A stretch of 64,000 nucleotides of DNA from Methanomassiliicoccaceae archaeon (lineage in GTDB: Archaea; Thermoplasmatota; Thermoplasmata; Methanomassiliicoccales; Methanomassiliicoccaceae). The position numbers and the translations under genes were made by a program. The stretch's first letter is position 1; each line of letters opens with the position of its first letter. The notes below the pieces were generated by a model, which saw only the letters and a program-made list of their open reading frames with translations, did no database searches and had not been told where the DNA came from. This document shows positions 4,675 through 43,392 of the stretch, piece after piece. The DNA is taken from positions 608,001-672,000 of the forward strand of contig JAXGZN010000001.1 in assembly GCA_040776945.1 (NCBI GenBank), in the 5' to 3' direction.

Positions 4675-5277
4675 TTGGCGATCAGTTTTCAGTACACACA
4701 CGAGTTCAGGGGCGAGCAGGCGGACGAGGTCTACGACAAGGTCATGGGATGGTTGACCAAGGAGGAGGCAAGGAAGGTCGTCGGGGTCCGGCCGACGAGC
4801 ATCGAAGCGGTCCACGGCTCGCATAAGACCATGAAGGGCTGGAACCGCAACGCCAAGAAGAAGCTGGGCTTCCTGTTCTCGCCGTCGCCGAACGGGACGG
4901 CGGTCTCCGTCACCGCCTCCCCGACCATGGCCAACAGCTCGGACGTCGCCCAGATGGCCGAGGACGCCCGCCTGAACTGGGGCCTGCTGGCCGAGGTCTC
5001 CTGCCAGATCATGACCTATTCGTCCGTCGCTCACGCCAAGGCCGATTTCGCCACCATCTTCGAGAACTTTACCTCGTACCCCATGACCGAGGTGGGCGGA
5101 CACTTCGAGCAGTGCCAACTGCTGACGCTGTCCAGCTCCCCGGTGGTGGTCAAGGAGTACCTGTTCCAGCAGAAGAACGTCTGCGGAGTCATCGTCTTCT
5201 CCACCGTCTGGGGCTACGACCTGGACCAGGCATGGATCGACGAGATGTTGGACCTGCAGGAGAGCAGGATCGTCTGA
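4675..5277 (+). CDS. hypothetical protein, apparently a chimera of two local paralogous families
   Basis: N-half resembles the reading frame from 12760; C-half aligns with the C-half of 24938..25459. Confidence 0.6.
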   Translation: MAISFQYTHEFRGEQADEVYDKVMGWLTKEEARKVVGVRPTSIEAVHGSHKTMKGWNRNAKKKLGFLFSPSPNGTAVSVTASPTMANSSDVAQMAEDARLNWGLLAEVSCQIMTYSSVAHAKADFATIFENFTSYPMTEVGGHFEQCQLLTLSSSPVVVKEYLFQQKNVCGVIVFSTVWGYDLDQAWIDEMLDLQESRIV

Positions 5278-6019
5278 GCGCTCGGCTCCAGGAACGAAAC
5301 CATTTCCAGTTCATTTTTTCGATAGCCAATAGCTGAAACGGGCGTTGGTGGTCTGATTTAGCAAGGGGAAGTACCTGACAGATGATTCGACTCGCGCCCT
5401 CATGCCGGCTTGGCGCTGACCAATGTCAGTACGTTTTTTCAAAGATCGTTGATCAAGGCCATCGGCACAACGGCGACGAACGCGCCTGAGGCGAGTGGAG
5501 TGCGCCTGTGCAGACAGAGCTCGCTTACGTCCTCCGCTGCATCTCAAGAACCGAAGCTGCCGAGCCTGACCGCCATTGTCCTCCCTATTCTTACTTGATC
5601 TGCTAGACGGGTCGTCGCCAAACTCTATCCCTCGCTTTGTGACGATGAGATCCACTTGAGGCGCATGCTCTTGCTGCTTGAGATCGTTCTCGAATGTTCT
5701 ATTGTTGCCCGCGGCGCTCAGAATGTGCCCATCAGCGTGTTCCTCGACGCGTGAGGAGTGCCTCGATGACCAACCTGTCACGATCATCGAGCTCGACCCG
5801 GCACCTGAAAAAATTAGCGGTCGAGCCAGTGAGTTCGGACTTAACTTGCGAACGATCATGAGATACATCCATCTTCTCATCCAACCTCTCGATCATGTCT
5901 TGGACGATGTCCGGGATGTCTTAGATATCGCCTTTACCCTCAACGAACGCAGCCGGGCCACGAACTTTTTGGCGAACGGTCAATGAGGTTTTGCCAGAGC
6001 TATCGTTCCCATGCGAGAG

Positions 6020-6394
6020 CTAGTTAAGCGTGTATCTTTTCCTCAGCCCCGTAGACTCGGCCACCAACCAGGAGCGATGCCTAGTCAGTTCACGAAGAGC
6101 GTGTATTTCCTTCGGCGGCAAGTACGATGCCGGTACAGTGTTGATCCAAAGCAGCTCGGCCAGCATCTCTGCATCGTTTTTATCGCTCTTCGCTCGTTCC
6201 GCGGTCAGCGCCTTAAGCTTGAGAGGATTAGCGAGAACGACGACGAGGCCACGAGCTTCGATCGCTTCGCAGACGTTCGATAAGCGGGGTCGCTTCCATG
6301 ACCACCTTTGCTTCGACCGCTCCGAGGCGGTCGAGGAAAGCATCGATAGCTCGGACGTCTGATAGAAATCGCTCGTTGACGATATCTCGTCCAC
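6020..6394 (-). pseudogene. IS110-family transposase relic
   Basis: VVLANPLKLKAL...AKSDKNDAEMLAELL...YLPPKEIHALRELTRHR matches the IS110 N-terminal domain; truncated. Confidence 0.8.
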
Positions 6395-6627
6395 TCTCGT
6401 CCTTCACGCATGCCCGAGTGTTCTTTTTATGTTTTCGAGTTCGAGTGCTTGTGACTTACCAAAGAGCTATAATCTGAGAAAATAGAGATAGATATATCTG
6501 CAGTCAAGACACTAACTGGACTGCGCTACCGAATAGGGGGAAGTATAGTAAAAGGCCATTATCGCCCCTTATAAAAAGGGAATAGGTCTAAAAATATATT
6601 AGGCATTATAGTTTTGGGGTTGGACAT

Positions 6628-7299
6628 ATGAATAGCATCACAACCATTATAATTATCATAACCATAGGGCTAATAACAACCATCATAGGGCCGCTTAGCG
6701 CCCTAATCGCTGTGAAAAATGTTAATGCCCGTTACTCTAGAATAGTAAAAGAAATTGAAAAAAAAGTAGTGACTTCTGGGTACTTTGTTTATGGGGCACA
6801 AAGTAGACGAAAAACCATTCTTGGATTGTTTATGTGTGAAATGGTTGGATGGGCCTTATTAATCCTGATAATTCTCGTTGAATTCATGGACCCTTGGACC
6901 ACTGTTCAATTGATAGGAACGACATTAATCAGTCTGACCTTTATTTTTTTTATACCCGTGGCATCCGCCATTTTTCTGCTCATCACGGGTAGAAAGGTAT
7001 TGTTCATAAGTCCTCTCCAAATAGAGATATGGAAACACAAAAAAGAATTGACAATTAATATAAAGAGTATCGAATGGTCCAATATAAAGCGAGCATGGAT
7101 CAACCTGCCAAAATATTATGGCCTCGGAGGCAAAGATGGTTACATGCTGGTCTTGCTCTTAAGGCCTAAAGGCAGATTGATTATGTGGGGTGACTGGATT
7201 AATGTAAAATTGCTATTAAAAGACATTTTAAGGTACGCGACTTCAGCTGATTTTGGAGATTCGGAACTTTTTATCAGGAGAATGGCAAGAGATAATTAA
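6628..7299 (+). CDS. AT-rich membrane protein (3 predicted TM segments), candidate orphan immunity protein
   Basis: 223-aa intact ORF with AT-rich codons; N-terminal TM, TM hairpin and soluble C-terminal domain (I.WSNIK); immunity role inferred from context. Confidence 0.65.
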   Translation: MNSITTIIIIITIGLITTIIGPLSALIAVKNVNARYSRIVKEIEKKVVTSGYFVYGAQSRRKTILGLFMCEMVGWALLILIILVEFMDPWTTVQLIGTTLISLTFIFFIPVASAIFLLITGRKVLFISPLQIEIWKHKKELTINIKSIEWSNIKRAWINLPKYYGLGGKDGYMLVLLLRPKGRLIMWGDWINVKLLLKDILRYATSADFGDSELFIRRMARDN

Positions 7300-7517
7300 A
7301 CAAACGGGCCGTGACGTTAAACTCGAACCAAGCGAAGAAGGGCTAAAATAAGCTTGAATATTAATATTTAAGTTATGCCTAAGGCTGCTCACTTTATATA
7401 CAACTACCCAGGCGAGGCCATATGGTTGAATGCCACCGACATTCTAATGTAGAACGAAGTAACAAGAAAATGCGGACAATACAAGATCGATCTGTGGTCG
7501 CTCCGCGACCACTGGTA

Positions 7518-9184
7518 CCTGACCTCCCGACTTTTAGGCACTAACTTCCGTTGATCGCCTCACGGCCAGCATGCTTCACAGTGCTTTAATAGTACTATGC
7601 CTACATAGGCATAGTATATGAGGCCCTTCACCCGCGTCAAGAACATCAACGGCATCGATTACGTGTACGAGATCACGCCGTACTACGATGCCGCCACGAA
7701 GAAGACCAGGCAGCGGTCGAAGTACCTGGGCAAGCTGATCGACGGGGAGGCGAAGCGGGTTCGGAAGGCGCTGCCGCGCAATGCCTTCGATTACGGCGAT
7801 CTGCTGCCGGCGCTCAAGATCGTCCGGGACCTGGATCTCGATTCAATGCTGGACCGGCTGCTGCCGGAGGACAAGGCCAGGACCGCCCTGGCCTTGGCGG
7901 TGAACCGCGTGGTCGACCCCTGCTCGGTCAGCAACGTGAAGACATGGTATGAAAGAACGTTCCTCTCGAGAGAGTGGGGCGATCTTCCGCTGTCCTCGCA
8001 GACACTGAGCGACTTCTTCGCGGCGCTGGGAGGCAGCTCGATACCGGAGCAGTTCACCGAACTGCTCCTGGACAATGTCGGACGCCAGGGGCCGCTGCTG
8101 TACGACATCACCTCGTTCTCCTCCTCATCGAAGCTGCTGGAGACACTGGAGTACGGCCACAACCGTGACGGTGACGGACTTCCGCAGATGAATCTGTCGA
8201 TCATCGCCCACAAAACGCTCGGAATACCGCTGGGCTTCCAGACCTATCCAGGCTCCATCGCCGACGTCAGCACCATCAGGAACACCGTCGCGCTGCTTCG
8301 TTCCCTCGGACTGGACGCTCCGGTCCTCATCATGGACCGCGGTTTTTACTCTCAGTCGAACCTAGCCGACATCCTCTCCGCCGGATACGATTTCATCATG
8401 CCTGCGCCGATGCGGCTGGACGAAGCGAAGAGCATCGTCTCCAAGAGCCATGCGGAGATCGAGGACGCGGCCTACCTGCGCAAGCTGGAGAACGAGACCT
8501 TCTTCGTCAAGGAGGTGACGCTCCGGCTCGGCGAGCTGGACGTGGACGGCTACCTCTATTACGACCTCAGGCGGGAGCAGGAGGAGAAGACCTCCTTCTA
8601 CGAGTGGCTCGACCGCGTCAAGACCAGGCTGGAGTCGAGGGACGTTCGCCCCTGGCAGAGCCCCGCCAGGGTGTTCGAGGAGGAGGCGGGAGCGCTGGCA
8701 CAGTACTTCGGCTGGAAGCTGGACGGCCGCAGGTTCATCGTTGACGTCAAGAAGAAAGCGGTATCGGCCCGGCTGAACCGGGCCGGGAAGATGATCATCC
8801 TGCACTCCGGCCGGCACAGCTGGCAGGAGTGCCTGTCGTGGTCCCGGGAACGCGACATCATCGAGAAGATGTTCTATTCGTTGAAGAACGATCTGGCCTC
8901 CCTGCCGCTCAGAGCGCAGAAGGTCGATGTGGTCAAGGGAACGATCTTCGTGAACTTCGTGGCGCTGATCGTCCGGTCCAGGCTGCTGGCGCTGATGCGT
9001 TCGAGCGGCCTATGCCGTGACCACTCGCTCCCGTCCATCATGCTGGAGCTATCGAAGGTCCGAAGGATGGAGCTGCCGGACGGCAGCTTCGTCACCGGCG
9101 AGGTGACGAAGAGACAGCGCAAGATCATCGAGGCGTTGGAGCTCGACCTCGACCGACCATGTGCCTAAAACCCGGGAGGTCAGG
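7518..9184 (+). mobile_element. IS1634-family insertion sequence, apparently intact
   Basis: 24-bp TIRs cctgacctcccgacttttaggcac (7518-7541) and gtgcctaaaacccgggaggtcagg (9161-9184), 2 mismatches; no TSD seen. Confidence 0.88.
7618..9168 (+). CDS. IS1634-family DDE transposase
   Basis: YDITSFSS, EYGHNRDGDGLPQMNL, PGSIADVST, IMDRGFYS, RDIIEKMFYSLKN. Confidence 0.9.
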   Translation: MRPFTRVKNINGIDYVYEITPYYDAATKKTRQRSKYLGKLIDGEAKRVRKALPRNAFDYGDLLPALKIVRDLDLDSMLDRLLPEDKARTALALAVNRVVDPCSVSNVKTWYERTFLSREWGDLPLSSQTLSDFFAALGGSSIPEQFTELLLDNVGRQGPLLYDITSFSSSSKLLETLEYGHNRDGDGLPQMNLSIIAHKTLGIPLGFQTYPGSIADVSTIRNTVALLRSLGLDAPVLIMDRGFYSQSNLADILSAGYDFIMPAPMRLDEAKSIVSKSHAEIEDAAYLRKLENETFFVKEVTLRLGELDVDGYLYYDLRREQEEKTSFYEWLDRVKTRLESRDVRPWQSPARVFEEEAGALAQYFGWKLDGRRFIVDVKKKAVSARLNRAGKMIILHSGRHSWQECLSWSRERDIIEKMFYSLKNDLASLPLRAQKVDVVKGTIFVNFVALIVRSRLLALMRSSGLCRDHSLPSIMLELSKVRRMELPDGSFVTGEVTKRQRKIIEALELDLDRPCA

Positions 9185-9275
9185 TTTTGAGTCCGAACTT
9201 GGCCACCGACGGAGCTGAAGCTGACCGCTATGTCAGATCATACCCCACCGACTGCCTCGCCCTCCTCCCCAGAGG
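9185..9275 (-). pseudogene. short relic of another IS1634-like transposase
   Basis: Minus strand reads VGYDLT*...VAKFG, echoing the YDxT...AKFGY motif. Confidence 0.35.
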
Positions 9276-9487
9276 ATTGCCTATAATCTATTGGTCAATA
9301 TTTAATACCGACCATGGTGTAACAGAATGGTTAATAATTAGTAATTACAAATTTTAAAATTATTCAATCAGAAAAGTATGTTCGTTTCAATCGTAGATCT
9401 TCTTTCAATGAGCCAATTATGTGCATATTACTTAGGCTCATGAGATAGTACTTAACAAAGAAATGGGCATCAAATAACCGCGGCGAG

Positions 9488-10615
9488 GTGGCGCGAAAAA
9501 ATCAAGCTTCACTGCATCATAGTGGCCGATGCACACTACCTGCGCCATTTTATAAGGGAAAGGGCGACATCAGTAAAATCGAGACCAGCGACACCTACGC
9601 CTACCTCGCCGACGCTCTCGGCTCGTCGAGGTTCGTGCTCCGGAACGGCGTCCACGACGTGGCGAGCGTCTCTTACTACGCGCTAACTTACGAGCCGTTC
9701 GGCGAGGCCGTAGCGTCGTCCGGCTTCGACCGCCTGACCTTCGCCTCCGAGGTCCGGGACAGCACCGGTCTCGTGTACCTGGGAGCGAGATACTACGATC
9801 CCGAGCTCGGACGGTTCTACGCTCTAGATCCACTGATCGGTTCATCGGCGAACCCACAGACCTTGGACCGGTACGTGTACTGCGCCAACAGCCCGCTGAT
9901 ACACACTGATCCGCGCGGGATGGTGTTTAATCTGATTGCTGGTGCGGTTGGGGCAGTTGTTGGGGGCGTAATTGGGGGCGTAGTTGCAGGAGTATCAGGA
10001 GGGGATGTCCTAGCGGGAGCTTTAGGGGGGGCCGTTGGAGGAGCAATGGCCGGAGTAACATGTGGCGCTAGCCTTCTGGTAGCTGGCGCGGTCAGTGGTG
10101 GCGTCACATCGTTTACTACCAGCATGATTGAAACTGGCGGCGACCTTCAAAAATCTACTGCTGACGCGATAGTTGGAGGAGTTATTGGCGGCGTTACTGG
10201 TGGTATTGGAGGAGCGATTGTGGGGAAAATGGCGACACGATCAATTGTAACGTCACGTCTAGCTTCTCATTTTGATGATGCGGTCAAGGGTGTGGAGCTA
10301 TCTGATGATGTGATTAAGGCCGCACAGAGCACAAGGGGGTATAATCGGGTGGGTACAGCATTGCATAATTATATGGAAAAGCAAATAGGGAATGATCGTG
10401 TCCTAAAATACAGTATCCAAACGCCAGAAAAAAAAGGTGCAGTACAAATTGTGAGATATCCGGATGCCAAGATTATAAAAGATAACTATTGGTACGACTG
10501 GACAACCAACAGTCCAAAGCAAATCAATAACCATATGAATCGATATGCTGATTTTGGCAAAGGGAAATTATTCCTATATGATGTTAGGGACATAATGTCA
10601 AGATATCGGAAGTAG
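9488..10615 (+). CDS. orphan Rhs cassette: Rhs-associated core plus variable C-terminal toxin tip
   Basis: YLADALGS, YEPFG, TGLVYLGARYYDPELGRF..DP, NSPLIHTDPRG; core homology starts at 9590, so the first ~34 codons are probably fortuitous. Confidence 0.9.
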   Translation: MARKNQASLHHSGRCTLPAPFYKGKGDISKIETSDTYAYLADALGSSRFVLRNGVHDVASVSYYALTYEPFGEAVASSGFDRLTFASEVRDSTGLVYLGARYYDPELGRFYALDPLIGSSANPQTLDRYVYCANSPLIHTDPRGMVFNLIAGAVGAVVGGVIGGVVAGVSGGDVLAGALGGAVGGAMAGVTCGASLLVAGAVSGGVTSFTTSMIETGGDLQKSTADAIVGGVIGGVTGGIGGAIVGKMATRSIVTSRLASHFDDAVKGVELSDDVIKAAQSTRGYNRVGTALHNYMEKQIGNDRVLKYSIQTPEKKGAVQIVRYPDAKIIKDNYWYDWTTNSPKQINNHMNRYADFGKGKLFLYDVRDIMSRYRK

Positions 10616-10641
10616 AAAAATAAATGGAGCATCTGGAGTAA

Positions 10642-11634
10642 ATGGATGAGGAAATAATAAGACAACGAGAGAAAATTGTTAAAAAACTCATTAAAAGGAG
10701 GCGGATGAAAGAACTAGAAGAACTATTGAACTATGTCGAAGGTCGCCACAATCTTAGATGCTTTCCCTTTAACAATGTCGAGTCAAAATGTCAAACAGTA
10801 CGTTTCAAGGATTCCACATATGAGATTGTACAAAAAACATCCTATAAGAAAGTAAAATTCGATTCATATGATTTTTCTCATGCGGATTTCAATCACACCA
10901 TATGGGATTATGTCAAGTTTAACAACTGTTTGTTTGACAAAACAAGGATATTCAATGCAATATTTAGTGGATGTACATTTTCGAATTCTACCTTCATTGA
11001 TTGTGAGCTAACACACACTCTGTTGGGAGGTAGCAAACCATTAGATTATGGATTGTTTATCAATACTATTTTTCGTGGTGGTTCAATCAATTCCTGCCAT
11101 TTTGACTACCCACTTTTTAAAAAATGTATATTCGAATGCAATATCTCCGACGTAAATTTTGGAGGAACCCAGTTCGTCGATTGTACTTTCACTGGACGAC
11201 TAAATGAAGTGATATTTCATGGGTATTCAAAGCCAGGAACTTCCAATAGCCTATTTAGAAACATGGATATACCAAGGAACGACATGTTAAACGTGGACTT
11301 CTCTCAGGCATATTTCGATGGTTATAGCTTCTTGGGAGGAATCGAATTCACTAATATTGCCTTGCCCAAATCAAATAGATTACTGCTTATAAAAAAAGGT
11401 CCAAAAGTGATGAATCTAGTACGTAATACTATCGAAAACGAGTGGGACGGTGAAGATAAAAGAATTGGATTACGATGCATCGACATCGAGTCAGAAAAAA
11501 TATTTGGAGGGCAAACTCAGTTACTCCATAGTGTTGATGAGAATTCGAAACATTATGGTGAATCCTTTGCCATGAAGTTAGCGTCCCTTATTATTCAAAC
11601 ACAACAAAGAGTGAACAAGGAAGATGATGGGTGA
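10642..11634 (+). CDS. pentapeptide-repeat protein, candidate cognate immunity protein
   Basis: Repeats such as YDFSHADFNHTIW, AIFSGCTFSNSTFIDCEL, VNFGGTQFVDCTF; AT-rich; starts 26 bp after the Rhs tip stop. Confidence 0.8.
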   Translation: MDEEIIRQREKIVKKLIKRRRMKELEELLNYVEGRHNLRCFPFNNVESKCQTVRFKDSTYEIVQKTSYKKVKFDSYDFSHADFNHTIWDYVKFNNCLFDKTRIFNAIFSGCTFSNSTFIDCELTHTLLGGSKPLDYGLFINTIFRGGSINSCHFDYPLFKKCIFECNISDVNFGGTQFVDCTFTGRLNEVIFHGYSKPGTSNSLFRNMDIPRNDMLNVDFSQAYFDGYSFLGGIEFTNIALPKSNRLLLIKKGPKVMNLVRNTIENEWDGEDKRIGLRCIDIESEKIFGGQTQLLHSVDENSKHYGESFAMKLASLIIQTQQRVNKEDDG

Positions 11635-11650
11635 GTTTTGTAGCAAAGCA

Positions 11651-12586
11651 ACTCTGTTGACTAAATATCCTGCAAACACTAGGCAGTTGTACGCAATGAA
11701 CGTGTACTGCACCTCGAGCAACAATACGTCGCTGCGCTACGAACGCAACGCTTTTCTCCGAGAACTCTCTTGATCACTGAGAACACGATTTCCACTCTCC
11801 ACCGCAGCCGATACACGCGACGCTCCTTCCATACGAACTTAACGAAGAATCGCCGCTTCATGGCCGCCGCGTATTGTCCTGTAAGATATGCTTGGGAATG
11901 ACGGGGCCTTCCTCATCTTGATGCCGGCGTCGATGTTCTGCGAAGCGGCGAAAAAATATTTTCCGCGAGTCGTAAGCGCTGTCCGCGAGCATGCGGATGA
12001 TACACCATGGCAGCGTGCTCGCTGCCTTACGAATGGTGATAAGAGGAACCGCCGGTCAGGAGAGCTTTTATTCAAAACGATGACTATGCCGACTGATACG
12101 GTGCCGTATCGACCACGACGCGCAACTTGATGCCGATCAAGTTATTCGCCATAATGAGCTCTCGACCTCGCGGAGGAACGACCGGCTCCACCTTCCCCTT
12201 GCTCAGACACTTCCACAGAGTGCCAGGTTCGAGCTTCGAACCCGAGCGCCGCACCGAGAGTGCGCAGCTCGCCCTGCGCCACTATTAACGATAAAAGCCA
12301 GGACATCGCGCTGCAAGCGAACGAAGCGAACCAGCAAGCGAGGAAAGCAGTACGGTCGACCTTTCTTACCCAAGTAAATCTCGTCGAGTTCGCTTCGCCA
12401 AGAGGCAATCCATGAGAGGCCGTTTTCGATCTCTTCTGAGGTATTGCTCGGTCAACCGTCCCCAATCTCTTTGTACCGTGTGCTCAAATCTAGAACTGTC
12501 TGGTATGGTTCTCTACGAACCCGACGTGCCAGCGCATGTCGGTTAATAGTATGCCAGAAAATTTAAGCTACTTTAATCAACAAAGC
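11651..12586 (-). mobile_element. degenerate IS5-family (IS903-like) element with frameshifted transposase
   Basis: Fragments MLADSAYDSRK and YRLRWRVEIVFSVIKRVLGE; imperfect IRs actctgttgactaaa (11651) and tttaatcaacaaagc (12572-12586), 12/15 match. Confidence 0.7.
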
Positions 12587-12759
12587 ACAAGCTGTGCAAG
12601 GTGTTGAGCGACACAGTACCGAGCGATAGGTTCGATCAAGATGCACGTTCTTTCTGCTCGCCATATACGTGAGATGGCATCCAATCGGCCCACTTTTTTC
12701 AATAGCAAGACTATTGCAGTTTCACCCTTGATCCCGCCACGCTTTTCTTAAACCGATAG

Positions 12760-13275
12760 AAGCTGCGCTTCGACCTCTCGCCCCAGGGCCGGTCGGTCAT
12801 CGTCAACGCCGCGGTCAGGCCGTCCTTGGCCATCGCCGACGACATCCGGCCGGCCGAGGAGCAGACCAGGCTCAACCGGAGCTTCCTCCTTGGGGAGCTG
12901 TGGGCCAGCGTGGAGGGCGTCGCCGCCACCAAGAGCCGTGAGAAGCTCGTCACCGCGCAGAAGGAACTCGAGGCGAAGCAAGCGGAGGCGTCCAAGAAGC
13001 TGCCCAAGGTGCTGATCAGGTTCGGGCTGATGGAGCTCGGCTTCTGGGTAGTATTGCTCCTTTTCCTCATCTACTTCCTGGAGATGGAGTTCGATACCAC
13101 CATGTGGGCGCTGATCGCGATCCTGTTCCTCGGCTCAGGGACCATGAACGCATGGGGCCTGCTGAGGATGTGGAGGCAGAAGCGGGCGGACGCGTATCTC
13201 TTGACGTACGCACCTTCGCTCCCGGCAGACGCTGCCGGGGCAATCGTTATTAGTTCCGAGCCCACTTCGCGCCTC
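12760..13275 (+). pseudogene. 5'-truncated membrane-protein gene reading in frame into hypB
   Basis: Frame opens at the island edge (KLRFDLSPQGRSVIVNAAV...), has two TM segments and no stop before hypB. Confidence 0.55.
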
Positions 13276-16691: not shown

Positions 16692-17423
16692 TTACTTCTT
16701 CCTTTTCTTCTTTCCCCGGTTCGTGTAGGTCAGGAAGACGACCACCAACAGGAGCACGACCATGATCGCCAGCACCATGTTGAGCGTGCCGTAGATGGTC
16801 CCTCCCTTGTGGAAGGTGGCGGTGAACGTCGTGCTGCCGTCCAGGAACCTCACGAACTCGCTGTTGGGGTCGAGGACTATCTCCACTGTGTGCTCCCCGT
16901 CCTTGAGGTCGCCGGCCGTCCAGTTGTAGGTCAGCGTCTTGGTCGAGTTCGCGGGTATGGTGAACGCCGTGGTGTTGATCACCGCCCCGTCGGCCTTGAA
17001 CTGCACCGGGACGTCGGTCAGCGTGACGTTGCCCGAGTTGTGCACCTCGGCGGAGATGACCACCGGCTTGACCACCTTGATGGTGTACCTCTCCGTCTGG
17101 TCCACGGTCCCGTTGGTGAGGCCTATGCTCAGCACCAGGTCGCCGAGGACGGTGCCCGCGGTCACCTTGACGGTGAAGTTCTCCGCATCGGTCGTCCCCG
17201 TCGTAGGGGCTACCGTTCCCGAGCTCACTGAGGCGTTCCAGGTGTAGTTTCCGGCCGGCCGGTCGGTCGACACGTGAACGATGACGTCCCCGGTCCCGCT
17301 GGGCTGCAGGTATTGAACGCTCCCGTCGAAGCTGACGCTGTATCTGTCGGTCTCCGCTGCCATGGCCGACGGAGCGGCCAGGCAGGCCATCAGCAGCAGC
17401 GATGCCGCCGCTGCCAGGATCAT
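16692..17423 (-). CDS. secreted CARDB-domain surface protein with C-terminal membrane anchor
   Basis: Signal peptide, ISAEVHNSG...VQFKADG...YNWTA...GEHTVEIVLDPN, C-terminal TM plus KKKRKK; ATGA overlap with aglB stop. Confidence 0.82.
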   Translation of the reverse strand: MILAAAASLLLMACLAAPSAMAAETDRYSVSFDGSVQYLQPSGTGDVIVHVSTDRPAGNYTWNASVSSGTVAPTTGTTDAENFTVKVTAGTVLGDLVLSIGLTNGTVDQTERYTIKVVKPVVISAEVHNSGNVTLTDVPVQFKADGAVINTTAFTIPANSTKTLTYNWTAGDLKDGEHTVEIVLDPNSEFVRFLDGSTTFTATFHKGGTIYGTLNMVLAIMVVLLLVVVFLTYTNRGKKKRKK

Positions 17424-20400
17424 CTCTTTCTTCGGCGTCCGAACACCCCCTTGTTGACCCTGAGGACCACGAACAGAACCAGCAGGAGCGCGACCAGGAC
17501 CGCCAGGGCCCAGGTGCCTGCCGGGATCTGCGGGGTTCCCATGGTTATCCCCTCGCCGCTTACCTCCAGGCCGCCGTCGGTCACGTCCACTGAGGTCTTC
17601 TGGATGGATTGCTCCGCGGAGGCGGTGGCGTTGGTGGAGACCACGGCGACGCGGACGGACGCGCCCATGTCGGGCGAGTCGGAGGCCTTGGTCAGTATGA
17701 CGTTGACCGTCTGGCCGCTGCCCGCGGAAACGGTCACCAGCCGGTAGTTGGTGTCGACCCCGGATATCCTCGCGGTCCAGCCGTCCATCGCCAGCTGATC
17801 GAGGTTGCTGACGGTGAAGTTGTAGGAGTCCTGGGCGTTGCCCTCGTTCTTGATCTGGAACGGATAGGTGATCGAGGTGCCGTCGACCGCCTGCGCCGAG
17901 CCCATGGACACCGACACCTTGTAGGTCGGGTTCACGTTGACGTCAAGGTTCACGCTGCCCTTGGCCGAAGTGTGGTTCAGGGAGGTCGCGGTGATCTTGA
18001 CCGGCGAATGGATCACCTTGGCGTTCTCGGGGACGATGATGGTCACCTGCACGGTGCGGGAGCTTCCAGTTCCCCAGGGCAGGCTTATGTCGTTCTCGGA
18101 GAAGGTCACGTTCCAGGTCGAGTCCGAACTCAGCCGGTAGGTGTCGTCCACGTTGCCGCGGTTATATACCGTGACATCGTAGGTGACCGTCTGCCCGGCG
18201 TCCACGGTCTTCTTGGTACCTGAGTCCCAGACCAGTTCGACCGCGCCGCTCAGCTGCCTGACCAGGTCGATGTTCCTGGTGGTGGCCCCGCTGACGGTGA
18301 TCTCGAAGCTGCTGGTGTGAGTTACGTTCACGCCCGCGACCTCCTCGTTGGTCCATGTGGCCGCGGCGTTGTAGGTGCCGGCCGGCAACAGTATGCTGTA
18401 CGAGCCGCCCGCCCCACTGGTCGCCGTGGCCTGCGCGTTGTCGGAGAAGGTCACCGTCGCCCCGCTCACGCCCGCCCCGTTGTAGCTGATGACCCCGGAG
18501 ACGGTGTTGCCGGGCTCGAAGGTCAGGTTCGCGGCGTTGGCCTGGTTGGGGTTGACGGTTATCACTCCGAGGTAAACGTTGGAGCCGGCAACGCCATAGG
18601 CGCTGTAGGTCCCTGGTGCCAGGGTGAACGAGTAGGAGCCAGCGTCGGAGCTTCCGGTGCTGTCCACCGCCGTGTCGGAGAGGGCCTTGAAGGTCCAGGT
18701 TACGCCGGATCCTGCCCCGCTCAGCGATCCGCTGATAGTGGCGGTGTCCAGCGTCCGGTTGAGCCCGATGTCCCTCTCAGTGGTACCGCTCACGGTCACG
18801 CTCTGCGTGCCGGAGTACACCACATATCTCGGCTTCTCGTCCACCGTGGCCTTGGTGTGGTAGTTCGCACCTATGCTGTACGTCCCATTGACCAGGTAGG
18901 TGGTGAACGAGCCTTTGCTGTTGGCGTTCATGGGAAGGCTCGCCGCGCCGGAGCCGATGGTCACGTTGGCCGGTATGCTCAGATCGCTGCCGTCGTACTG
19001 CAGCTGGCCGGTGAAGGCCGGGGCGTACTGGGGCGTGATGCTCATCGAGGCTCCGGCGGACAGGGCCTCGGAGCGCAGGTCCGCGAAGTGGGCGTTGTTC
19101 TCGGTCAGGCTCGTGTATATGGTGTAAGTTCCCGGCGCCAGATATTCGGTGATGGTCGGGGCCGCGTTGACCGTCATGTTCTGGGGCCCGATGAAGCGGA
19201 CCGAGCCGGTCGCCGACGCGCCCATGCTCACGCTGAGGGTCACCTTCGCGCTCTCGGTGACCGCGATGGCCTGGGCCGCGGGGTCCCTGCCTACCTCGAC
19301 CGTGAGGGGCTGGGAGGCCTTGTACCGAGACGAGTCGTCGCCGGAGGTGACGTTCTGGTCCACGATCATGGAGTAGGTCCCCGGGCTGAGGCTGACGCTG
19401 AACGCACCAGAGCCGCCGGTGACCGCCGAGGTCGACCGAGCGCCGCCGCCGTTGGCCGTGAAGCTCACGGTCACCCCGCCGACCCCGGAGCCTCCCGAGG
19501 TCAAGGTGCCGGTGACGGTGCGGTTGTCGGCGACCATGGGAATGTTCTCCTTGGCCGCGGCGTTCAGCGGGTCGTAGGTCTTCTCCCAGGTCTGGTATCC
19601 GCTCAGCGAGGCGGTCAGCTGGTAGCTGCCCTTGGGCAGGGTGATGTTGTATCCGCCGGAGGAGGCGGACACGAAGGACACCGTCTGCGCGGCGGCCGTG
19701 GTCGACCGCACGCTGAGCACGACGTTGGGTATGCCCTCGCTGCTGTCCATCTCCCCGTTGCCGTTGGTATCGTACCACGTCCTCCCGGAGATGTACACCG
19801 AATCCGTCAGAGCGATGTCCTGGGACGTCGCGCCGGAGACCGATGCGGTGCTCCAATATGCCTTGCTCGGACCGGAGGCGTATACGAAGTAGTCCCCGTT
19901 CGGCAGGACCAGGCGGTACGCTCCTTCCGAGTTCGTGGTCGCGGTGACGAAGGTCGCGTCAGAGGTCCTGGTGTACACGACCTTGGCGGAGCCTGCCGCG
20001 GTGCTGCCGTCCTTGACCGTGCCGGTGACCACGGAGCCCGCCGACATCGACAGGTCCACGGTCGCGGTGTTGCTGTTCGCGTTCAGAGGGGACATGGCCA
20101 CCTGGTCCACGCCGCCTACGCTGACGATCGCGTACGCGGTGTAGACGCCCTGGGGCAAGGTGATGCGATAGTTGCCCGAGGCGTCGGTGGTGGTGAACTG
20201 CTCCCTGGACGCGGATATGAACCCGACCGCGACATTGGCCTGAGGCGATCCTCCCAGGGTCACCGTGCCGGTGACCTGGGTGGCCGAGCGCACCCTGAGC
20301 TCCACGCTCTTGCTGCTCCCGGCGCTGACGCTCACCTTCACCGAGCCGGCGCTGATGTTATAGTCCGTCGTGTCAACGGTGTAGTTGCCAGGCAGCAGGC

Positions 20401-23400
20401 GGTCGAAGGTGAACGTGCCGCCCGAGCCGCTGGTGGCGTTGGTGACGTTGCCGTTCTTGTCGTCGGTGATGCTGACCCCGATGCCCTCGGCCGCTCCTCC
20501 GCTGACGAAGGAAAGGGTGCCGGAGACCGTCGCGGGCTTTACGGCCAGGTTCCGGTTCATGGCCTGGCCGGCCACGGTGGTCACGGTGGTCCGCCCGAAC
20601 TCGTGGCCCTTGTAGGTGGCGTAGAGAACGTTGGACTCGCCGCCCACCGCTGTCATGCTGTAGGAGCCGTTGGCATCGGTGGTGGCCGTGGCCTTGAACC
20701 CGGTGTCGTTGTTGATCATGGTGACCTCGGCCCCGGAGATGTACTCATCGCCGGTGCCGAAGCGGCCGTCCCCGTTCATGTCCCAGAACACCGAACCGGA
20801 GATTACGGAAGCGGGCAGGACGACGTCGCCGTTCGCGCTGAAGGCCTCTTTGCCCATGGCCTGAGCGTAGGAGACCGTGAAGTTCAGGCGGTCCAGCTCG
20901 GCGCCCACCAGGGTATCGCCCTTCGGGTCCCCGGCGGAGAACACCACGCTGACGTCGCCGAACGGCAGGAGGACGCTGTACGACCCGTCGGCCGAGGTCC
21001 TCACATTATCATGGGGGATGCCATACTCATCGACCACCGTCACCTGGATCCTTGCCAGCGGGGCGCCGTCGTTCGATGTGGCGGTCCCGCTCAGAGGCGC
21101 TCCGTCATAATACTGCAGGAATGTCACTCCGGACTGCAGGCTGGCGGCGGACATGTCCACCGTGCCGTTCATCTTGCCGGCGTCGATCTGCTGCTTGAGG
21201 TACAGCGCCTCGTCGAAGGAGATGGCCTTCCACTCGCGGGAGTGGTTGGCGACATCGGCCGAGCCGTACGGGTTGAAGTACGCGGTCCGGTACACCTGGC
21301 GGAAGTGCGTCAGGTTGTAGCCGGGCATGGCGTCGTATTTGGTCATCGAGCCGGAGATGCCGGGGATGCCCTGGCTGGTGGCGTCCACGTCACTGGGGCT
21401 CAGGCCCATGAACGAACGGTACAGCATGGTCTTATAGAACAGGTCGGTGTAGTAGATCTGGTAGCCGAGCACTCTGTCCATAGAGCCCACGTCCTTGACG
21501 TCGACCACGGAATAGTCGCTCAGCACCGCCTTGATCGAATAATAGTCGGTAGGGGCGTTGGTCGCGCGGTCGATGACCCGGTCGTTCAGCTTGGCCGGGG
21601 CGTAGAAGATGTTGCTGCTGGTGGCGCTGAAGGGGAACAAGCGGCTGTCGACAGCGACGTAGCCGATATCGTGGCCGGTTACCTCCCTCAGGTCCTGGTA
21701 CAGGCTGACCATTTTGCTCATGCCGGCCTTGCTTATCTCCACCCTGGCCGCGGCGTACTTGGCGTTGCCGGGGCTCAGGTCGTCGGTGAAGTTGCCGTAG
21801 ACCTCGGGGTTGTCCTTCACCTTCTGGACGTAGTTCGCGGGGTTCTGCATGATGTCCTTGACCGCGTCGGCGTCCACGCCATTCGCCCGCAGGGCGTTCA
21901 TCACCGAGCCGTTGAAGTCCGTGCCCTCGAGCAGCCTGACGATGAGTAGGGACACGGCGTCGCTCTCGTTCTCGGACATGAGGAACGAGCCGGCGAACTC
22001 GTAGCCGTCCTGGAAGTTGTCGGCGACCGTGGGATGGCGGCCCTGCTGGACCGCCTCGAAGCCGTAGTCCCACCATGACAGGTAGGCCGGCCGGTCCTGG
22101 ATCGGTTCCTCAGTGTCCTGGGTGGCGAACCATGACCAAGCCGCCGGATAGTAGGCGGTGGGCAGGGGAAGCGAGTAGCTGAACGCCCCCAGGTACCAGT
22201 AGGTGCCGTTCTGGACATCGTAGCCGGAGGGGTGTATGAAGTCCGGCAGAGCATGATAGATCTCCCGGTCATACTCCTTCTTGGTCTCCGAGGGGATGCC
22301 GGCGTCAACCGAGGTCCAGGCGTTGGGCAGAATGATCAGGAAGGCGAGGAACAGCGCCACGGCGACGTGGCGGACCTTGACCGCCTTCTTGAGAGTGGTC
22401 CAGGGGTTGGACCGGAACCCGCTGAGGGCCCGGGGGACCTCCTCGAACTTGATCAGCCCAATGATCAGCGCCAATATCCATCCGGCGGACATGGCGAAGG
22501 CCGGGGAGGCGTTGAACATGAACCTGCTGGCCGAGGCCGCCATGTAAATGCTCACGGCCATCCACACCACCACGAACACAAGGTATGGGGAGGGGTTCTT
22601 GGGTATCTTGACCGCTGCCCACACGATCCCGATCAGCGCCAGCCAGAAGGTCACGGCCCCGAATGACAGGACCAGGTACGAGAACGTCGGCGCCTGCGCC
22701 TCCGAGATGGTGGAGTACAGCTTGCTCTTGACCAGGTAGCCCTGGCCGGTGATGATCGCCTCGAATATGTTGGGGGCGATGAAGAATATCGCCACCAGCC
22801 CTATGGCGATGATGCCCGCCACTGCCGGTATTGCCAGCGTCCATGGGTAGTCGCGGGAGACCATTAACAGGCCGCCAACCAGCATCGAGCCGAGGAACAG
22901 ATAGAACGGCACGTCGAACCACTGGCCCCAGTAGTTCATTTGCCAGTAGAGCGGGGCCATCACTGCGAAGGCGGTTATCAGCATGACGAACACTATGAAG
23001 AACTCGCCCATGGAGTCGACGTTCCGAAAGCGGTTGATGAGGACCTGCACAAGGAAGTAGACCAGGACGATGATCAGCAGGTAGGTGTAGCCGGTCCAGA
23101 CCATGGCCACGGCGGCTATGCATGTCCCGCCCAACATCGCATAGATGAGCGACCGCTTGTTCGTGCTGAAGTAGCTCTCCAAACCAGACCGTATGGTCCT
23201 GCGGTCCCTCCAATCGGCGACCCATTTCGTACCCTTCATCGTGGCCAGGGCGCGGAACAGGAAGTACAGCGCGAACACCACGAAGAACAGGATCATGGCA
23301 TCATGGTCGGCGTCGGCAAGCACGCTGCGGGTGATGTTACCAGGCATCAGCGCGAACAGCAGCGACGCCAGAAGACCGGCCCGATTGCCGAACGCGGCAC

Positions 23401-23872
23401 GGGTGAGCATGTACAGCGGGATGATGGTAAGCGCGCTCCAGAACGGGGTGGACAGCACCAGGGTGTATCCGGTGGCGTCGCTGAGCGAGGCCCCGGATAT
23501 GCCTGAGATGAACATGCTGGTCACCGCCACCGACCAATCGTACAGGGGGGGCCTCATGTTCCTTATGCCCATGGGGTAGTTCAGAAGGGGGTCCTGGACC
23601 AGATGTTGGCCGTTATCCTCAACGTACTCGATCACGCGCATGTGATAGTATGAGTCAGAACCACCGGCGACCAGGAAACCGTTGTCCACCGAGGTGGAGA
23701 AGCCATAGTACGATCGCACGAAAAGCGCGATGAATATGACCACCACCAGGATGAGGATGGTGCCCCAGTTCTTACCCAGCCAAGTGTCCTTGAACCGGGA
23801 CTGGATGCCCTCCTTGGTCGGCTTCCGTTCCTTCTGGGACCGGCCGTCAGGCCTCCCTGCTTTCGCTTCCAT
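17420..23872 (-). CDS. aglB: giant oligosaccharyltransferase AglB (STT3) with long beta-sandwich repeat extension
   Basis: GSDSYYHMR, ADHD, TISEAQ, SWWDYG; multi-TM N-half, then carboxypeptidase-regulatory-like repeats and a C-terminal TM. Confidence 0.93.
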   Translation of the reverse strand: MEAKAGRPDGRSQKERKPTKEGIQSRFKDTWLGKNWGTILILVVVIFIALFVRSYYGFSTSVDNGFLVAGGSDSYYHMRVIEYVEDNGQHLVQDPLLNYPMGIRNMRPPLYDWSVAVTSMFISGISGASLSDATGYTLVLSTPFWSALTIIPLYMLTRAAFGNRAGLLASLLFALMPGNITRSVLADADHDAMILFFVVFALYFLFRALATMKGTKWVADWRDRRTIRSGLESYFSTNKRSLIYAMLGGTCIAAVAMVWTGYTYLLIIVLVYFLVQVLINRFRNVDSMGEFFIVFVMLITAFAVMAPLYWQMNYWGQWFDVPFYLFLGSMLVGGLLMVSRDYPWTLAIPAVAGIIAIGLVAIFFIAPNIFEAIITGQGYLVKSKLYSTISEAQAPTFSYLVLSFGAVTFWLALIGIVWAAVKIPKNPSPYLVFVVVWMAVSIYMAASASRFMFNASPAFAMSAGWILALIIGLIKFEEVPRALSGFRSNPWTTLKKAVKVRHVAVALFLAFLIILPNAWTSVDAGIPSETKKEYDREIYHALPDFIHPSGYDVQNGTYWYLGAFSYSLPLPTAYYPAAWSWFATQDTEEPIQDRPAYLSWWDYGFEAVQQGRHPTVADNFQDGYEFAGSFLMSENESDAVSLLIVRLLEGTDFNGSVMNALRANGVDADAVKDIMQNPANYVQKVKDNPEVYGNFTDDLSPGNAKYAAARVEISKAGMSKMVSLYQDLREVTGHDIGYVAVDSRLFPFSATSSNIFYAPAKLNDRVIDRATNAPTDYYSIKAVLSDYSVVDVKDVGSMDRVLGYQIYYTDLFYKTMLYRSFMGLSPSDVDATSQGIPGISGSMTKYDAMPGYNLTHFRQVYRTAYFNPYGSADVANHSREWKAISFDEALYLKQQIDAGKMNGTVDMSAASLQSGVTFLQYYDGAPLSGTATSNDGAPLARIQVTVVDEYGIPHDNVRTSADGSYSVLLPFGDVSVVFSAGDPKGDTLVGAELDRLNFTVSYAQAMGKEAFSANGDVVLPASVISGSVFWDMNGDGRFGTGDEYISGAEVTMINNDTGFKATATTDANGSYSMTAVGGESNVLYATYKGHEFGRTTVTTVAGQAMNRNLAVKPATVSGTLSFVSGGAAEGIGVSITDDKNGNVTNATSGSGGTFTFDRLLPGNYTVDTTDYNISAGSVKVSVSAGSSKSVELRVRSATQVTGTVTLGGSPQANVAVGFISASREQFTTTDASGNYRITLPQGVYTAYAIVSVGGVDQVAMSPLNANSNTATVDLSMSAGSVVTGTVKDGSTAAGSAKVVYTRTSDATFVTATTNSEGAYRLVLPNGDYFVYASGPSKAYWSTASVSGATSQDIALTDSVYISGRTWYDTNGNGEMDSSEGIPNVVLSVRSTTAAAQTVSFVSASSGGYNITLPKGSYQLTASLSGYQTWEKTYDPLNAAAKENIPMVADNRTVTGTLTSGGSGVGGVTVSFTANGGGARSTSAVTGGSGAFSVSLSPGTYSMIVDQNVTSGDDSSRYKASQPLTVEVGRDPAAQAIAVTESAKVTLSVSMGASATGSVRFIGPQNMTVNAAPTITEYLAPGTYTIYTSLTENNAHFADLRSEALSAGASMSITPQYAPAFTGQLQYDGSDLSIPANVTIGSGAASLPMNANSKGSFTTYLVNGTYSIGANYHTKATVDEKPRYVVYSGTQSVTVSGTTERDIGLNRTLDTATISGSLSGAGSGVTWTFKALSDTAVDSTGSSDAGSYSFTLAPGTYSAYGVAGSNVYLGVITVNPNQANAANLTFEPGNTVSGVISYNGAGVSGATVTFSDNAQATATSGAGGSYSILLPAGTYNAAATWTNEEVAGVNVTHTSSFEITVSGATTRNIDLVRQLSGAVELVWDSGTKKTVDAGQTVTYDVTVYNRGNVDDTYRLSSDSTWNVTFSENDISLPWGTGSSRTVQVTIIVPENAKVIHSPVKITATSLNHTSAKGSVNLDVNVNPTYKVSVSMGSAQAVDGTSITYPFQIKNEGNAQDSYNFTVSNLDQLAMDGWTARISGVDTNYRLVTVSAGSGQTVNVILTKASDSPDMGASVRVAVVSTNATASAEQSIQKTSVDVTDGGLEVSGEGITMGTPQIPAGTWALAVLVALLLVLFVVLRVNKGVFGRRRKR

Positions 23873-42280: not shown

Positions 42281-43392
42281 CTCGAGGTCCAAAGCCGACC
42301 GTCATCGCTCCGTTCGAGGAATACATACGCGCGCGATTGGCCGAGTGCGATCTCTCGGCCAGACGGATCATGGAAGAGATCGAGGCGAAGGGCTACCGCG
42401 GCGGTTATACCGCCGTAAAGGACCTCGTGCTGCCGATCAAGCGGGACCGCGCCGTTCGCGCCGAGATACGCTTCGAGACCAGGCCGGGAGAGCAGGCGCA
42501 GGTGGACTGGATCGATCTCGGAAAGCAGGGGATCGACCATGAAACGGTGCATCTGTACTGCTTCACCATGGTGCTCGGGTACTCGCGCTACGCCTACGCC
42601 GAGTTCACCGACAACGTGCGCACTGAAACCTTTGTGCAGTGCCACCTCAACGCCTTCCGGTACTTCGACGGCCTGCCGCGCACCGTGCTGTACGACAACA
42701 CCAAGAACGTGGTGCTGCTCCGCGCGCTCAAGAGCTCCGAGTCCACCTTCAATCCTCTCTACCAGGACTTCGCTCAACACCACGGCATAACGCCGCGGCT
42801 ATGCCGTCCCGGCATCGCCGGAGCGAGGACCAAAGGCAAGGTGGAGCGGTTCATCCAGTATCTGGAGCGGGACTTCTTCATCGGCCGGTCGTTCGATTCG
42901 CTCAACGACATCAACTGGCAGCTCATCGTTTGGCTGTCCAAGGCGAACTCGCGCGTGCACGGCACCACGAACGCGGTGCCGTGCGAACGGCTGAAGGAAG
43001 AGGGGCTGAGGCCGCTTGGCCTTGAGAGGCCGTACCTGGTCACCCTGGTCGAGTTCAGAAAGGTGACCAGAGATTGCTTCGTTTCCTATCGCGGCGCAAG
43101 ATACTCGGTGCCGTGGCGCTACGCCGGACGCGAATGCCAGCTGCATGTGCGCTTCGACAGGTTCGAGGTCCTGGTCGACGGCGAGGTCATCGCCAGGCAC
43201 GAGGTCGTGCCTGGACCTCGCACCATCAGGGTGAAGGAGCATTTCGCCGGGCTGCACAAGATCAAGCGGGACGAGAACCTGGAGCGCCACAGGAAGCGGA
43301 TGGGGGTGGTGTTCGATCCTCTTCTCGTTCCGCCGGAGGTCCAGGTGAGGGAGCCGTCTTATTATGAGAGGTTCGCAGGAGGCAATGAATGA
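42281..43392 (+). pseudogene. istA: IS21 transposase IstA, 5'-truncated by the IS1634
   Basis: GYRGGYTAV, RFETRPGEQAQVDW, LGYSR, LYDN, RTKGKVER, YSVPWRYAG; N-terminal HTH missing. Confidence 0.88.

Follow-up and report, generated by a model that had tools for sequence, protein, structure and literature searches.

What is the gene pair at positions 9488–11634 of the Methanomassiliicoccaceae archaeon DNA examined here: a toxin with its immunity protein, and if so, what sort of toxin, or the remains of something else? In the window (the whole stretch of 64,000 nucleotides that was analysed), an open reading frame (ORF) of 375 amino acids, P0001 (9488–10615, forward strand), is followed by a gene for a pentapeptide-repeat protein of 330 amino acids, P0002 (10642–11634, forward strand). 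We favour, with a probability of roughly 0.6, the reading that the region is an orphan rhs-CT/immunity cassette (CT, C-terminal), in which the restriction endonuclease (REase)-like tip of P0001 would be the toxin and P0002 its cognate immunity protein. Sequence comparisons and the predicted fold of the tip make it likely that the two are indeed paired as REase-like toxin and cognate pentapeptide immunity protein.

P0001 consists of the end of an Rhs core, a Gly/Ala-rich segment and the tip. Its translation runs in the order ...HTDPRGM, then VFNLIAGAVGAVVGG..., then ...GTALHNYMEKQ...VRYPDAKIIKDNYWYDWTTNSPKQINNHMNRY...RYRK up to the stop codon. The stop-to-stop frame opens at 9449 on the forward strand with a non-Rhs leader (9449..9574), similarity to another rhs gene of the genome (see below) beginning at about residue 30–36. 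The earliest possible start is a GTG at 9488, with AT-rich non-coding DNA on its 5′ side, and no Shine–Dalgarno-like motif was seen ahead of it on reading the sequence. The 3′ end of the Rhs core (9575..9922, forward strand) ends in DPRGM (D141–M145; nt 9908–9922), position 9920 falling in the Met codon. The TIGR03696 model (Rhs_assc_core) matches residues 68–145 with 65.3 bits (cut-off 32.5; E 5.2e-18). The core, closing in DPxG, stands directly before a variable C-terminus, as it does in Rhs polymorphic toxin cassettes.

The other rhs gene, P0005 (44791..46878, reverse strand), lies about 34 kb from the cassette and encodes 695 amino acids with RHS repeats, the same core end, a Gly-rich segment of its own and an unrelated tip. 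The core of P0001 is 82.4% identical to it in nucleotide sequence over 324 bp (9589–9912 against window positions 45440–45763 of the minus strand, i.e., C1:653440–653763). At the protein level, P0001 and P0005 are near-identical up to DPxG, loosely similar in the Gly-rich part and unrelated past that. There are five RHS_repeat matches in the whole genome, all of them inside P0005 and none in P0001, which has neither a full Rhs/YD shell nor an N-terminal delivery domain, the state that defines an orphan fragment. We regard P0001 as an orphan C-terminal cassette because this copy, truncated at its 5′ side, has only the core end in common with P0005 and because the RHS repeats are confined to the latter. 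It is possible that P0005 is the recombination partner of the orphan cassette. P0005, the only gene of the genome with RHS repeats, is itself without a signal or delivery domain, and the strain may no longer have a working Rhs system.

Base composition changes abruptly along the cassette. The GC content is 0.629 in the Rhs core fragment, 0.41 in the tip and 0.359 in P0002. At third codon positions (GC3), it is 0.81 in the core, 0.39 in the Gly-rich segment, 0.37 in the tip and 0.35 in P0002, the drop falling exactly at the DPxG border between core and C-terminal region. As this drop coincides with the cleavage motif and extends through P0002, the foreign block starts there and takes in the immunity gene. 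What a sequence-only reading of the window had reported of the layout proved accurate: the string GTALH...RYPD...WYDWTT...QINNH..RY in the tip was re-read exactly from the translation of 9488–10615, the pentapeptide gene begins 26 bp downstream (at 10642, the tip stop being at 10615), and the AT contents of tip and pentapeptide gene match, as the GC3 values show.

The tip occupies 10229..10615 on the forward strand (residues 248–375 plus the stop codon) and has a conserved core of about 110 amino acids (10289–10612). None of the Pfam and NCBIfam models matches it, even at E <= 10; a Hemocyanin_M match (E 0.0074–0.045) is below the cut-off and was put down to chance. Searches of the PDB sequences with the tip and with a tip profile gave nothing below E 0.01, and of two word-indexed protein searches, one returned the tip itself alone and the other, capped at 8000 candidates and thus weak, the tip and the protein of a related archaeon, G229. 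A phmmer search against 1.84 billion cluster representatives yielded no match and missed the query itself too, which is no proof of rarity, since Rhs tips are probably concealed in clusters whose representatives bear different tips. We found no description of this tip family in family libraries and in literature searches. Judged by these comparisons, the putative toxin tip is an uncatalogued domain family.

Relatives of the tip were identified in nine other loci: in three related archaea (G229, G244 and G259), on a metagenome contig (L027) and in five Pseudomonas Rhs proteins. G229 was reached directly with the tip as query (E 1.9e-6 in a whole-genome search); weaker matches occur in G211 (E 0.004) and G309 (E 0.006, with one TAG inside). 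The tip profile matched the source genome alone across 401 genomes of the archaeal phylum, and it detected the tip in five of 351 Pseudomonas genomes, four times on Rhs frames of 1461–1481 amino acids. The tip resides on an orphan ORF of 318 amino acids in G229 and of 224 in G244, while in G259 it forms the end of an Rhs protein of 3094 amino acids. For the scans of metagenomes and species-representative genomes, a 4-row alignment of immunity proteins served as the query; the former yielded L027, the latter a Pseudomonas Rhs protein with the tip at its end.

Three of these relatives deserve separate mention. In the G244 locus (L016, 2208–9654, reverse strand), a small ORF and the orphan tip come after an rhs gene for 715 amino acids; then follow two pentapeptide immunity genes in tandem, a further orphan Rhs C-terminus and a second small ORF. 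On L027 (297–701, forward strand), the tip remnant does not share the reading frame of the YD repeats upstream of it, and no Rhs core end is present; the neighbouring genes look bacterial, and the arrangement may be due to a frameshift, to a scar left by recombination or to faulty assembly. The Pseudomonas tip L034:2540-2926 is the subject of the best match to an unnamed ESM Atlas cluster (0.96; 195 of 256 features in common) with 67 members, proteins of about 111 amino acids mostly from Myxococcota; the family of the tip probably reaches further into bacteria than the genome searches reveal.

An alignment of six tips, in which the others are 22–29% identical to the window tip, defines the signature G-x3-[H/D] ... 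PD ... W-x-D-x-[T/S]-T ... Y ... G, common to all of them. Invariant (in P0001 numbering) are G289, P325, D326, W335, D337, T340, Y353 and G359, a degree of conservation that puts the motif beyond chance. These alignments suggest as candidate active-site residues H293 (10364-10366), D326 (10463-10465), D337 (10496-10498), T339/T340 (10502-10507) and R352/Y353 (10541-10546), all on the forward strand. Four residues past the invariant Gly, His is found in three of the six tips and Asp in the other three; both are metal ligands. Compared with the PD-(D/E)xK motif, P-D and the second Asp are kept in 6/6 tips and the Lys is not, its position being taken by Thr in five and by Ser in one, a variant motif that leaves the fold possible. 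A basic residue directly precedes the invariant Tyr in five of the six.

The tip and the pentapeptide protein go together. P0002 as query led to homologues in G229, G244 (two tandem copies), G259 and G224, and when the 261 genomes of the order were searched with a profile of the immunity family, six matched at E <= 1e-10, five strongly. The sixth match, in G277 (E 3.2e-11, in a frame of 704 amino acids), seems to reflect generic similarity between repeats and was set aside. In all 10 tip-bearing loci, a P0002-family ORF directly follows the tip, and the partner is likewise present in 6/6 of the loci that were found by way of the tip (G229 and the five from Pseudomonas). In Pseudomonas, it is a pentapeptide gene for 254–257 amino acids, located directly downstream in 5/5 cases according to hidden Markov model (HMM) searches. 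P0002 homologues directly 3′ of tip homologues have 26–35% identity. The 26-bp gap and the synteny in 10/10 loci point to an adjacent, co-inherited immunity gene. The proposal that the pentapeptide gene is a candidate for the cognate immunity gene is strengthened by this conserved order, and by the fact that its product varies with the tip and not with the Gly-rich segment.

Which fold might the tip have? An AlphaFold2 model built from an alignment of four tips reached a mean predicted local distance difference test score (pLDDT) of 83.2 and a predicted template modelling score of 0.78; the five models had pLDDT values of 83.2, 80.8, 80.6, 71.5 and 50.9. In the model, where residue 1 is P0001 residue 238, a long helix (45–65) with G-x3-H is followed by a poorly formed first strand and a loop, a strand (90–92) right after P-D, a strand (97–103) with W-Y-D-W-T-T, a helix (106–115), a strand (121–127) and a helix (129–134). 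The order of these elements and the positions of the acidic residues match the alpha-beta-beta-beta-alpha-beta core of PD-(D/E)xK enzymes.

Structure comparisons lead to the same group. In a VIA-align search of 48,161 chains, seven of the top eight were type II restriction endonucleases, with Z scores of 6.0 for SwaI (root-mean-square deviation 3.9, 118 residues aligned), 5.8 for BamHI, 5.4 for OkrAI, 5.0 for BstYI, 4.9 for EcoRV and for BglII, and 4.5 for EcoRII. The top rows of a Foldseek search of the PDB were influenza PA-N, the arenavirus L endonuclease, Cas4 and YaeQ, none at E <= 0.001. On re-alignment, EcoRV, BglII, EcoRII, PspGI, Cas4 and PA-N scored Z 5.0–3.9, with Rep15 as an outlier at 5.1. 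In BFVD, the first-ranked entry, with a probability of 0.94 and E 0.046, was a PD-(D/E)XK nuclease from an archaeal virus, Halogranum tailed virus 1. In the ESM Atlas, the named family nearest to the window tip was Tox-REase-9 (0.92), with REase-5, REase-3, REase-7 and EC869-like families lower, and for a Pseudomonas tip 26% identical to that of the window it was the sole named family (0.93).

We conclude from the modelling that the tip probably has a fold of the PD-(D/E)xK type, while the chances that it acts as a nuclease appear evenly balanced. The sequence-only reading had posited a divergent REase-fold toxin with DxT in place of ExK. Its structural half is supported by the AlphaFold2 model, by fold searches dominated by PD-(D/E)xK proteins and by the ESM Atlas, together with D-x-[T/S] at the Lys position; all these scores are modest, and the canonical Lys is missing.

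P0002 is composed of a basic N-terminal part of about 60 amino acids, repeats from about residue 64 to 245 and a C-terminal part of about 85 amino acids. It exceeds the Pfam gathering scores of PF13599 Pentapeptide_4 (42.7 vs 38), PF00805 Pentapeptide (36.4 vs 20.2) and PF13576 (33.7 vs 27), as its homologues in Pseudomonas and on L027 likewise exceed those for pentapeptide families. The positions common to the family are chiefly the buried Phe, Cys, Leu, Gly and Trp of the repeat helix. A word-indexed search with P0002 returned the protein itself and one generic pentapeptide protein. A search of the PDB with the profile of the immunity family returned MfpA, QnrB1, McbG-like and HalA chains, aligned over the repeats alone (E 6e-9 to 2e-4 for the first three). 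A relationship with HalA (Hailong) was considered and dropped, the similarity being at the level of the repeats (36 bits vs a cut-off of 250).

A GGAG motif stands 4–7 nt ahead of the P0002 ATG. Metatranscriptome contigs from three of four runs (three of four studies) start at 10583–10588, i.e., about 55–60 nt 5′ of the P0002 start codon, and extend into P0002 without mismatches; shorter pieces cover parts of the toxin fragment. The agreement between these contigs is a weak hint that a P0002 transcript starts inside the end of the toxin ORF, and contig depth cannot rank toxin against P0002.

Between cleavage motif and tip lies a hydrophobic segment rich in Gly, Ala and Val (9923..10228, forward strand; P0001 residues 146–247). 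Nine GxxxG motifs occur in it, along with two stretches of strong hydrophobicity, and 92 of its residues include 25 Gly, 14 Ala and 17 Val; the Glycine-zipper 2TM profile matches it weakly and not significantly (E 3.5). Ahead of its tip, the G259 protein has a hydrophobic stretch of another kind. We infer that, in the archaeal versions, the segment could be a module for membrane insertion or translocation and not the toxic determinant.

Combining these elements, the orphan cassette could work as follows. The last ~110 core residues, up to the DPxG self-cleavage motif, would serve as a homology arm to the 695-amino acid rhs gene. The glycine-zipper-like segment would help the released tip to enter or cross the target membrane. 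The ~110-amino acid domain, extended in its signature to G-x3-[H/D] ... P-D ... W-x-D-x-[T/S]-T ... [K/R]-Y ... G-x-G, would be a metal-dependent nuclease with DNA or RNA as its substrate, and the basic residue that stands just ahead of the invariant Tyr, on the next helix, may make up for the replacement of Lys by Thr/Ser. P0002, as a cytoplasmic pentapeptide beta-helix protein, would bind and block the tip. Lacking both an Rhs shell and a delivery domain, the toxin fragment is most probably a reserve that stays silent in this genome; the intact immunity gene may still protect against neighbours with the same tip.

A number of observations weigh against this interpretation or parts of it. The genome is without a full-length Rhs protein, its sole RHS-repeat gene encoding 695 amino acids vs 3094 in G259. 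The AlphaFold2 model is based on just four sequences, one of the five models goes down to the lowest pLDDT given above, and a single-sequence prediction of the tip is poor (pLDDT 43.4). No Foldseek match in the PDB or BFVD attains E <= 0.001, the best Z of 6.0 stays below the 7–8 often reached by unrelated models, Rep15 with its Z of 5.1 is not a nuclease, and HMMs of the Tox-REase families have no match to any of the six tips even at E <= 10. The absence of the canonical Lys from all six aligned tips implies that the domain may be inactive or of other chemistry; the charge of the tip is not conserved either (isoelectric points, pI, from 4.5 to 10.4), which is unusual for a non-specific binder of nucleic acids. 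As regards the pairing, the five Pseudomonas loci are closely related to one another and the immunity gene was the route to several of the archaeal loci, so that the independent lineages number about six, not ten. Moreover, two immunity homologues are not accompanied by a tip: one on a metagenome contig (L029) and the second G244 copy, to which the immunity protein of G229 is 91% identical. Finally, DNA may be present in the RNA libraries behind the P0002 contigs.

The same data bear on other explanations. That the whole cassette is a dead relic, with a toxin fragment that is not made or exported and a decaying pentapeptide gene, appears unlikely to us, and much of what was said of the toxin ORF speaks for it: the ORF is truncated at its 5′ end, with only a GTG and no Shine–Dalgarno-like motif, an IS1634 copy lies just upstream with IS110 and IS21 elements nearby, the genome has no RHS-repeat gene but the short P0005, and a search of 10 further genomes of the same genus found the immunity family in none. 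A decaying cassette would nonetheless have to account for two ORFs without stops or frameshifts over 375 and 330 codons, for the retention of all eight invariant tip residues and of the residues conserved in the core of the immunity protein, and for the GGAG before the P0002 ATG and, weakly, the coverage of P0002 by RNA-library contigs. Orphan cassettes with intact immunity genes are, moreover, the normal state of Rhs and contact-dependent growth inhibition loci, according to Zhang et al. 2012 (PMC3482391). We think it still less probable that toxicity actually lies in the Gly/Ala-rich segment, which would depolarise membranes by forming pores, as the Rhs toxin Tse5 does, and would leave the C-terminal domain an accessory or targeting role. 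The nine GxxxG motifs and two hydrophobic stretches right after the cleavage motif fit such a role, the C-terminus of an Rhs pore former being said to use glycine zippers. Gly-rich hydrophobic stretches recur in other archaeal Rhs C-termini (those of P0005, the main gene of G244 and the G259 orphan), and an Rhs pore-forming toxin is on record (PMC10684867). The five Pseudomonas Rhs proteins, on the other hand, have the tip and the pentapeptide partner and no Gly-rich segment, and the related archaea G229 and G244 have Gly-rich segments that are 97% identical, yet identity is 35% between their tips and 36% between the immunity proteins next to them. Immunity thus goes with the tip, not with the Gly-rich segment, and this points to the tip as the toxic part. 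Protection from pore formers is also usually conferred by a membrane protein, and P0002 looks soluble, no hydrophobic stretch having been noticed on inspection of the sequence (no transmembrane prediction was run).

Could P0002 be something other than an immunity protein, i.e., an accessory protein, chaperone, loading factor or passenger, comparable to the pentapeptide/DUF2169 accessory proteins of type VI secretion systems (T6SSs)? An accessory role in T6SSs is on record for pentapeptide proteins (in a reference given by PMC10933656), and YjbI-like pentapeptide genes stand beside GH-E Rhs toxins with no role assigned in the accessible portion of a 2017 survey (PMC5714182). We hold this to be highly improbable here. 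The gene is placed directly 3′ of the tip in 10/10 loci and has the low GC3 of the tip; it is kept in archaeal orphan cassettes, where no T6SS gene was seen, though no T6SS search was made; it diverges as fast as the tip (26–36% identity between lineages); and the tandem or tip-less extra copies (the second G244 copy and L029) are what is known of orphan immunity genes. Furthermore, Tsi6a, the cognate immunity protein of an Rhs C-terminal toxin, resembles a pentapeptide-repeat antitoxin, according to the preprint 10.64898/2026.07.13.738213. A bolder version of the immunity function is that the P0002 beta-helix fills the nuclease cleft as a rod-shaped surrogate of nucleic acid and that, separately, the Gly-zipper segment found only in archaea is a self-inserting module that crosses the single archaeal membrane without a T6SS. 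The sequence-only reading had likewise envisaged a DNA mimic or nucleic-acid decoy, for which we find no support: seven immunity homologues are near neutral (net charge −9 to +2, pI 5.5–7.9), and P0002 stays far below all NCBIfam family cut-offs, with 30.3 bits vs 360 for MfpA and 25.2 vs 240 for Qnr. Judged by net charge and pI, near neutral in the immunity proteins and, for the latter, widely differing among the tips, the two do not complement each other electrostatically in any consistent way, nor is there a hint of a polyanionic decoy. A complex prediction for tip and P0002-family protein scored 0.27 vs a mark of 0.32, without controls, and is no evidence either way. We rate this surrogate-and-zipper combination as quite unlikely, and continue to prefer the orphan cassette with a REase-like tip and a pentapeptide protein that would bind it.

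The host genome of 2.17 Mb, in two contigs, has a GC content of 59.7%; genes in the window include GatD/GatE, an STT3/AglB oligosaccharyltransferase and a translin-family protein, which mark the host as archaeal. The cassette is situated in an island of lowered, patchy GC (window 5000–12800) flanked by the gatD/gatE genes and a cobW-like gene. Just 5′ of it is the IS1634-family insertion sequence (7515..9184, forward strand), whose transposase ORF (7618–9168) matches the NCBIfam model transpos_IS1634 with 246.5 bits (cut-off 100); a second copy, 99.94% identical over 1670 bp, occurs on the same genome contig (C1:461511-463180). Across the IS1634 copy from the cassette is an ORF for a multi-pass membrane protein of 223 amino acids (6628–7299, forward strand; GC 0.375), the best match of which is weak (STM3941 family, E 0.0011, 18.9 bits vs a cut-off of 40); this may be a stranded immunity gene from an earlier cassette. 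Further away, a fragment of an IS110-family transposase (PF01548, E 4.8e-13; 6020–6394, reverse strand) adjoins an ORF for 189 amino acids (5311–5880, reverse strand) to which no Pfam family corresponds. An IS21 pair (istA/istB; 42337–44172, forward strand) is found just past the 3′ end of P0005. The oligosaccharyltransferase gene (17420–23872, reverse strand) encodes a protein of 2150 amino acids, unusually long for an archaeal AglB, with an STT3/AglB domain and about eight CarboxypepD_reg-like domains.

The proposed cassette would place a new toxin-domain family and a matched immunity family, both absent from Pfam-A and NCBIfam, inside the well-known Rhs cassette scheme. The same pair exists on Pseudomonas Rhs frames of 1461–1481 amino acids and in Rhs genes of methanogen-related archaea, in a domain of life where such systems are thought rare. 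A tip without the Lys is a useful test of how far the active site of PD-(D/E)xK enzymes can drift, P0002 as an immunity protein would give a clear role to a poorly understood fold, that of the pentapeptide repeats, and the Gly-rich insert specific to archaea offers a testable idea on how toxins enter archaeal cells. If the surrogate idea were true, P0002 would be the first DNA- or RNA-mimic immunity protein in a polymorphic toxin system, and, together with the Gly-zipper idea, would make this one toxin/immunity pair re-fitted for warfare in both domains.

With respect to known systems, the best structural neighbours of the tip model are nucleases of the BamHI/BglII and influenza PA-N types, from which it differs in that the Z scores are just 4–6 and identity is 5–16%. 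Departures from the canonical Lys occur in these enzymes too (E113 in BamHI, Q95 in BglII and, on a later helix, Lys134 in PA-N), and the His of the first helix in PA-N is a metal ligand. Among toxin families, Tox-REase-9 (PF15650) resembles the tip as a small Rhs C-terminal domain with a REase-like predicted fold and with G-x3-H on a helix and then an acidic residue on a strand. Its motifs are GxxxH, E, D, ELKP and YxxE and its partner is Imm54, according to Zhang et al. 2012 (PMC3482391); the tip, in contrast, has W-x-D-x-[T/S]-T without Lys for ELKP, YxxE is not conserved, and the partner is a pentapeptide protein instead of Imm54. Membership of Tox-REase-9 was considered and rejected: neither the window tip nor five homologues match its HMM (gathering score 27.3 bits) at E <= 10, and ELKP and YxxE are absent. 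PF15650 itself turned up in none of 201 genomes of the archaeal phylum and in none of the 400 scored out of 401 sampled Gammaproteobacteria, counts that do not bear on its absence, as the 14 control genomes were blank too.

P0002, for its part, has in common with MfpA, Qnr, McbG and AlbG, the DNA-mimic protectors of gyrase, that they are right-handed pentapeptide-repeat proteins in self-protection against a toxic agent acting on nucleic-acid enzymes or DNA. It differs by ~60 extra N-terminal and ~85 extra C-terminal residues and a net charge of about zero, and its predicted partner is a secreted toxin domain, not gyrase. Our literature searches brought up one Rhs C-terminal toxin with a pentapeptide-like immunity protein, in the preprint 10.64898/2026.07.13.738213 as far as its available text extends: Tse6/Tsi6a of Stenotrophomonas rhizophila CFBP13503, whose toxin is also a rare unnamed domain, provisionally described as a nuclease. 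Toxins of the Tse6 type are reported there on other delivery scaffolds in distant phyla as well. Unlike the tip and P0002, to which it is likened by description only, Tse6/Tsi6a is bacterial and T6SS-linked.

The closest parallel for the locus as a whole is provided by the orphan rhs-CT/immunity cassettes of Zhang et al. 2012 (PMC3482391), in the available text of which classical polymorphic toxin systems are described as rare in archaea and the word pentapeptide does not appear. The archaeal host, the Gly-rich insert between cleavage motif and toxin, and a genome without a full-length Rhs gene set the present cassette apart. It agrees with them in the core that runs to DPxG, in the variable toxin right after it with a sharp compositional shift, in the immunity gene directly 3′, and in being a copy truncated on its 5′ side that has only the core end in common with another rhs gene.

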